Assembly: GCA_964252035.1 (NCBI GenBank) | Contig: OZ176201.1 | DNA length: 64,000 nucleotides | From: Podarcis erhardii | Lineage: Eukaryota | Strand: one strand, 5' to 3' | In this document: piece after piece, positions 60,939 to 61,365 of the stretch | How the letters are laid out: each line of letters opens with the position of its first letter | How positions within the stretch are numbered: the first letter of the stretch is position 1 | Notes under the pieces: model-generated | Database searches by the model: none | Told to the model about the DNA's origin: nothing | What the model saw: the letters and a program-made list of their open reading frames with translations, nothing else | Program-made: the position numbers and the translations under genes

Positions 60939-61225
60939 GCACAGGACACAGTTTTGGGATGTAGCAGCAGTTAGTTATAGCAACAGTTAGTTGTAGCAGC
61001 AGTTAGTTGAGATAGGTTGGTGATGTAGAGTATTCTTCCAAGGTGTGCTTTAGCAGCTGGGCTTCCCAAATGGGTGGATTCGTGGTAATTCTTCACAATC
61101 ACGCTGGCCAGATGCTGGGGCACCAAAAACACAGCTGTCTGGTCCTTCCTGGAGCGTTGCTCCTTCTTGGCTGGCCCACTGCCGTTCATCAAGGGTGTAA
61201 CGCGGTTCCACATCATCTGGAGTGA
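60939..61225 (-). pseudogene. Integrase N-terminal zinc-binding domain, copy B, with preceding linker
   Basis: PRYTLDERQWASQEGA...LVPQHLASVIVKNYHESTHLGSPAAKAHLGRILYITNLSQLTAATSQNCVLC (HHCC) reads through once the two extra 16-bp repeats are removed. Confidence 0.8.
60960..61007. repeat. Three tandem copies of a 16-bp unit inside the integrase ZnF
   Basis: tgtagcagcagttagt / tatagcaacagttagt / tgtagcagcagttagt. Confidence 0.95.
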
Positions 61226-61230
61226 GTTCT

Positions 61231-61365
61231 GGGATTATTCTTTTGGCATAGCAGGCATTTCCTGGAAATCTGGGCTGCCAGTTGATAAAGGTTGGCTATA
61301 TAGACATACTTCTCCAGCTGCTTGGTTGTGGCATCTGGCCTCATGTGGGTGGACTCATAGTATCT
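61231..61365 (-). pseudogene. Integrase N-terminal zinc-binding domain, copy A
   Basis: RYYESTHMRPDATTKQLEKYVYIANLYQLAAQISRKCLLCQKNNP; the first His of HHCC is replaced by Tyr (CAT to TAT, inferred). Confidence 0.8.

Follow-up and report, generated by a model that had tools for sequence, protein, structure and literature searches.

The 64,000-nt stretch of DNA analysed here (the window) holds a defective endogenous retrovirus (ERV) with two integrase HHCC zinc fingers in tandem, and we found that the two were contributed by different class I ERV families, A and B, whose segments meet at joints that we located in a structure common to all copies of the element, which has lost protease (PR), reverse transcriptase (RT) and the integrase core and has spread recently. 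In our assessment it is highly probable that a pol fragment of family A, approximately 360 nt long, was placed in a family-B backbone, likely by template switching of RT, that this young, enzyme-less element of 41 loci was likely moved by helpers, and that the same process likely took up Ty1/copia, ZNF638 and immunoglobulin heavy-chain (IgH) S-mu cargo.

The provirus and its family

The provirus is 7,210 nt long and lies on the minus strand at 58661-65870 in window numbering, its 5' part running past the window edge; all segments of it described below are on that strand. Its 3' LTR (58661-59297, 637 nt) is identical to the 5' LTR (equivalent positions 65234-65870, outside the window), and the target-site duplication (TSD) is the 4-bp CTAC. 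The LTR is 76% identical to that of the family-B relative L187/L188 and gave no match to family-A loci. The family comprises 41 loci in the genome, 19 + 22 by joint type and again 41 in an independent count, a number that is a lower bound in both searches. At the 38 loci where both LTR ends were located (three loci without both ends were left out), the LTR pairs were identical in 31, with 7 mismatches per 24,185 columns overall, and 30 of the 38 carried a 4-bp TSD. With an assumed rate of 1-2 x 10^-9 changes per site per year, the mean age of the copies is about 70-145 thousand years. The family has spread recently, and the element is young and non-coding. No open reading frame (ORF) exceeded 235 aa in the 40 family copies scanned, which are largely collinear with the window copy, and comparison of the window copy with the pol of its relatives gave no match to PR, RT or the integrase core. 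The element combines intact LTRs, a primer site and a polypurine tract (PPT) with multiple insertions and the lack of these enzymes, as is typical of non-autonomous ERVs, and its recent, TSD-flanked spread without enzymes suggests that it was likely moved by helper proteins acting in trans; families with open pol frames exist in the same genome, none of them assigned as the helper.

Several marks, the 4-bp TSD among them, place the element in class I (gamma-like). Since it has no RT, the comparison with MLV-type RT was made on the family-B relative, whose RT-RNase H gave 'RT/RNase H p80' (E 1e-132) and XMRV RNase H as top PDB matches, and domain searches found Gag_p30 in the window, MLVIN_C (the MLV-type integrase C-terminus) in the A and B relatives and TLV_coat (a gamma-type env) in the B relative. 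The primer site, which we take to be of His type, carries a 4-nt insertion after the 5' LTR in 35 of 38 loci and a 3-nt insertion in one; at L242 and L257 it has the uninterrupted form of the B relative, consistent with a reversion templated by the tRNA primer. At five loci (L233, L234, L238, L259 and L284) the 3' LTR is followed by bases that normally stand between U5 and the primer site, and there is no clean 4-bp TSD; an unprocessed viral end was possibly integrated there. One family copy (L223/L224, G000:C17:15.739 Mb) contains an internal 605-nt tandem duplication across the left joint. Elsewhere in the window, host exons at 7115-8707 (+), 27252-28328 (-) and 31571-32230 (-) are presumably those of SH3PXD2B and NEURL1B.

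Two fingers and two donor families

A sequence-only reading of this DNA had described two HHCC fingers in tandem with an RNase H-integrase linker between them, and both fingers proved real. Finger A (61228-61365) is encoded in an open frame (61362-61246) and was recognised as Pfam Integrase_H2C2 with an E value of 1.9e-7, over the cut-off. It is followed by the family-B linker (61088-61235, 83% identical to L187 over 60994-61192) and by finger B (60934-61087, beginning at 61087), which fell below the cut-off (E 0.0038) and whose frame is shifted ahead of the CxxC by 3.1 tandem copies of a 16-nt unit (60960-61009). The same reading had aligned the fingers without gaps and counted 18 of 39 identical residues. 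That count is right for the strings as written, 14 of 31 over the unbroken part of B plus four by-eye identities past the break; the gap-free alignment did not survive, because the 16-nt array shifts the frame and the B string splices two frames into one. All of the top 30 loci have finger A and then the start of B, so the pair is neither accidental nor peculiar to this copy, many B copies being truncated, and the single unbroken B finger among them (L007) shares 19 of 39 residues with A. Finger A, linker and finger B lie in different frames, so no two-finger protein is encoded; the doubled finger is likely a functionless passenger.

That the fingers stem from different viral lineages, as had been proposed, was borne out by their donors and by the tree. 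Finger A is 85.5% identical in nucleotides to L133/L132 and finger B is 88% identical to L122, with only 53.8% between the two. In a phylogeny of 23 rows and 117 columns, A joined family A and B joined family B; 10 of the 20 inner branches were weak, and holding A and B as one clade cost 62.5 log-likelihood units and was rejected (p-AU 2.6e-7). Pol protein identity between the relatives of A and B is only 59%, and exactly one HHCC motif was present in each of 20 non-family pol loci gathered by family searches.

The backbone is that of family B. LTRs, gag, RNase H, linker, finger B, integrase end and env tail all match one single-finger provirus, L187/L188 (blocks at 69-89%, most at 76-88%). 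Family-B gag (p12, CA and the start of NC, with deletions and stops) occupies 62388-63535 (82-88% to L188; Gag_p30 E 9e-18), and an RNase H part occupies 61584-61797 (85% to L187). Downstream of finger B come the integrase C-terminal part and an accessory region (59943-60933, 69-82% to L187), in which the integrase core is missing, the core stretch of L187 being unmatched, and finally the PPT with the last env codons (59298-59388, 92% over 89 nt to L187). Between these two, 59389-59942 holds a small pre-env ORF and an env leader of a further class I lineage; the best non-family match was to family-A loci (41% aa), nucleotide matches were confined to patches of 67-80%, and a search of the genome for a close donor gave none. 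Small ORFs between pol and env without a Pfam match recur in the class I families here (window 60116-60643 and 59562-59924; L187:5952-6416; L133:2436-2849) and are possible accessory genes. Exact parents were not found in the genome, the best relatives being 4-24% diverged, and among the 40 candidates scored out of 389 only L122 was a closer family-B relative with an integrase core.

The family-A insert, 85-96% identical to family-A loci, spans 61589-61228 and matches L133, L132 and L129 in three pieces. The RT-RNase H tether at the left joint (61506-61589, 93-96%) is followed by the last RNase H helix with the start of the linker (61364-61511, 86-87%) and by the finger (86-88%), and the deletions that bring these pieces together (approximately 405 nt after the tether and approximately 125 nt before the finger) both fall on shared words of 4-5 nt, the latter on one of 4 nt. 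The right joint is an 8-nt word at 61235-61228, close to 61225-61231, where the sequence-only reading had proposed to look for microhomology; its A side is observed and its B side comes from a sister family, with 7 of 8 letters. Among the family-B relatives found, a single one possesses an integrase core, and a deletion of its own has removed the insertion site; the B side of both joints is accordingly read from this sister family. The latter keeps the insertion site, with 7 exact letters common to it and the A tether and 7 of 8 common to it and the terminus of finger A, and the B codons on both sides of the insert align to it gap-free. Random pairs of A and B positions share at least 7 letters with P 6.9e-4. 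Segments of two distinct ERV families meet in this element at joints with microhomology, the B side again being that of the sister family.

Comparison among copies bears on the history of the insert. The left joint of the window type was found at 19 loci and the other 22 hold 66 more nt of B RNase H before A, so that the window form arose later, through a deletion flanked by 7-nt direct repeats. The A tether is present in 41 of 41 loci and finger A in 39; L242 and L266 lack the finger and keep the tether, so they represent later deletions. No copy without the A insert was found: a pattern for the B RNase H end gave 24 matches (23 family loci running into A and one B relative with its own deletion), and all 39 matches to the B linker start were at family loci, none of them insert-free. 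The order of events is therefore one that we infer. The divergent copy L241 (G000:C9:7.67 Mb) has additional family-A leader and gag pieces (84-88%) upstream of S-mu and a longer S-mu fragment, and may be nearer the ancestral structure; its additional pieces indicate that A and B recombined more than once and that a B backbone with one insert is too simple a description.

The shared words at the joints suggest template switching by reverse transcriptase. During minus-strand synthesis, RT would have left the B RNA at the linker start and moved to the end of the zinc finger on an A RNA packaged in the same particle; after copying back as far as the A tether, it would have returned to the same B site. 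Both jumps of such an out-and-back switch would run backward against the homologous register and would thereby double the finger and the RNase H end. The A piece would have been cut from approximately 900 to approximately 360 nt by the two deletions, before or after capture, and the other cargo (Copia gag, a likely circular ZNF638 RNA, and S-mu sequence likely already mutated by AID) would have been gathered by the same process. Of the earlier proposal of a mosaic made by a backward template jump, the mosaic of diverged ERV families stands; the single jump between two genomes gives way to an insertion with two joints in a B backbone and to more than two donors.

Copia, ZNF638 and switch-region cargo

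Three further foreign pieces, all in sense orientation, are present in 39-41 of the 41 loci. At 61797-62399 lies the 5' gag fragment of a Ty1/copia element, 67-81% identical in nucleotides to its donors, with shared words of 9 and 5 nt at its joints and no copia LTR kept in the captured fragment. The donor ORFs contain RVT_2 with the integrase ahead of RT in both of the two scanned, and LTR pairs were seen at 13 of 14 donor loci fetched. Its presence in an ERV demonstrates sequence exchange of a retrovirus with a Ty1/copia element. L267-L280 belong to a young Ty1/copia family of the same genome, in some copies of which the two LTRs are identical and a single ORF spans 1,433-1,470 aa.

Upstream of gag, 63542-63825 consists of three pieces that match one host locus, ZNF638 (98% identical to ZNF638 of Podarcis raffonei, which makes a wall lizard the likely host), in back-spliced order: first the 3' end of the large exon, next a 54-nt exon that lies upstream of it in the gene, and last the large exon's 5' start. 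The two joins coincide exactly with splice sites, only exons of the supposed circle are present in the captured piece, as in a retrocopy of a circular RNA (circRNA), and the back-splice joint was found in 39 of 41 loci. The normal exon order is confirmed by the annotated protein and by contigs from four presumed-RNA runs that bridge the forward joints; a search of these four contig sets for the back-splice joint returned only forward joints, in contigs that drop rare forms. Since the reversed ends share only 2 nt on linear mRNA, circular RNA is the simplest donor, and the captured exon order suggests that such a molecule was likely copied across its back-splice joint. A class-switch junction between S-mu and a downstream switch region was also considered for 63540-63830 and discarded, as 160 kb of downstream IgH sequence gave no match and the piece is ZNF638; a PDB search with a ZNF638 exon returned nothing. 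ZNF638 (NP220) silences unintegrated retroviral DNA, and the captured piece is short and frameshifted, so that this link is probably a coincidence.

The outermost cargo (63830-64000, continuing to 64468 past the window) is a fragment of the host IgH S-mu switch region in Ig sense, 78% identical over 688 columns. The piece measures 640-750 nt, matches a single host site (over 794 columns in the divergent copy) and is present in 40 of 41 loci, the exception, L243, having been fetched without its 5' part and showing no 5' cargo motif at all. The donor site lies at the 5' margin of a tandem array rich in AGCT, which has the last JH on one side and the constant exons of IgM on the other: AGCT occurs 17-22 times per 500 nt in the array core against a window mean of 3.0, and the array is flanked by JH motifs upstream and by constant exons downstream that encode a C1-set domain with IgM as top PDB matches. 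The IgH locus itself (G000:C13:5.58-5.77 Mb; L281-L283 and L285-L300) contains at least 12 JH-type motifs, IgM, further constant exons and what we take to be several more mu-like and several likely upsilon-like genes, mostly preceded by AGCT-rich blocks.

AID targets WRC/GYW motifs of switch regions in activated B cells. We compared the captured S-mu with one host allele, counting only differences common to three diverged copies (3 of 41), and found that they fall on 30 of 114 WRC/GYW hotspots against 12 of 217 other non-CpG C/G positions and 14 of 284 A/T positions (p 3e-7), on both strands. In eight control segments of the same element, hotspots did not stand out (19/257 versus 56/936, p 0.39); the Copia piece taken alone was borderline (p 0.07). 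The neighbouring segments being untouched, the S-mu changes likely predate capture, and a fragment marked in this way points to an infection cycle in an activated B cell before the lineage reached the germline. We consider it reasonably probable that the ERV lineage replicated in an activated B cell, captured AID-hypermutated switch RNA and brought it to the germline, where it is now found in 40 of 41 copies.

An unlikely alternative keeps the mosaic and denies the somatic origin of these differences, the host having gained hotspots after capture or a divergent germline allele having been captured. In its favour, switch arrays evolve fast and homogenise, and the comparison covers a single host allele. 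Polarity was voted by paralogous repeats: at 27 hotspot sites the host letter won 24 times and the ERV letter never, with three ties, and at 26 non-hotspot sites the ERV letter took 6 votes, in alignments that are seeded on the host sequence, and so biased towards it, and in arrays that homogenise. It is this difference between the two classes of site, 0 of 27 against 6 of 26, that speaks for somatic change, together with the enrichment of hotspots other than AGCT (16/68), the involvement of both strands, the inclusion of C>G and G>C transversions, the absence of hits in the adjoining ZNF638 piece (0/15) and the B-lineage specificity of J-C intron RNA. If AID did act on the fragment before capture, the element would be a natural record of somatically mutated Ig-locus sequence passing from soma to germline inside a retrovirus, the cell type crossed by an endogenising reptile retrovirus would be readable from a somatic mutation signature, and the S-mu piece would preserve, as a fossil, the action of AID on the S-mu of a squamate (a lizard), for comparison with living B cells. 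Searches of the open-access literature turned up no published account of this element or of an ERV with a switch region, which is weak evidence of absence.

Alternative origins and known systems

The mosaic itself could also have arisen in DNA, by integration of a family-A provirus, and of a Copia element, into a family-B provirus, with deletions trimming each before the family spread. This family has often lost sequence at short repeats (66 nt, approximately 405 nt and approximately 125 nt), nesting followed by deletion can leave similar joints, and no copy preserves an intermediate that would exclude it for the A and Copia pieces. Yet no donor LTR or TSD is left, every foreign piece is in sense orientation, and the two ends of the A piece fall on a single B site, each with a shared word, where all B codons are retained; moreover, splicing of the ZNF638 piece shows that RNA was the donor in that case at least. 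We therefore regard nesting as improbable. The adjacency and homology of the two motifs would suit a local tandem duplication followed by divergence, or a natural two-finger integrase, and here the evidence is heavily adverse: each copy has a single-finger family of its own at approximately 86-88% identity, against 54% between the copies, the rejection of a common clade and the distinct donors rule out duplication of one finger, and the different frames, with single fingers in all 20 pol loci, rule out a two-finger enzyme, leaving a negligible chance to either. Smaller still is the chance of an assembly chimera, which has nothing beyond the odd domain order in its favour and would have to recur with the same joints at 41 loci with different flanks and TSDs of their own.

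The template-switch capture proposed here has precedents. Taken alone, the doubled-finger mosaic is of a known kind, one more inter-family ERV recombinant. The closest natural case to the out-and-back insertion is recKoRV, a set of KoRV x PhER recombinants for which co-packaging was proposed, according to the part of the report used here (PMC6112702). As described there, recKoRV resembles our element in several respects: it is a defective ERV whose ends belong to one family and whose interior includes a stretch of an unlike family, microhomology is seen at some breakpoints, TSDs are present and many loci are occupied (PMC6112702). In our element, by contrast, the segment of the second family is a short insert by which parts of RNase H and zinc finger are doubled, and no fewer than four other donors contributed, non-retroviral and host sequences among them. 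Retroviral non-homologous recombination or patch repair, in which co-packaged retroelement or host RNA is inserted at fortuitous microhomology, is given in the sections drawn on as at least 1000-fold rarer than homologous recombination (PMC4997597, PMC3187697); the cases in those sections are single laboratory or clinical events, whereas several are stacked here in one inherited, amplified family.

The host cargo has its own parallels. The mouse circRFWD2 circRNA pseudogenes share with our element a non-colinear exon-exon joint, many copies and an association with LTRs, and the portion of that paper considered here calls the mechanism unknown and warns that non-colinear joints can also arise by other mechanisms (PMC4897178). 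In our case the back-spliced piece lies inside a delimited ERV, between gag segments, so that the carrier is visible, and the element shows an ERV carrying back-spliced RNA where that text left the mechanism open; the supplements of the paper list further circRNA retrocopies that may bear on novelty (PMC4897178). CrocERV29 (KIT-ligand) and CrocERV31 (nectin3) are likewise reptile ERVs that took up host RNA and then multiplied, and, on the published excerpt, theirs are coding mRNAs with ORFs, as opposed to the non-coding fragments found here, one of them intronic and with an AID-type pattern (PMC4299795). It is this host cargo, and above all the S-mu fragment with its apparent AID marks, that lifts the element beyond the known recombinants.
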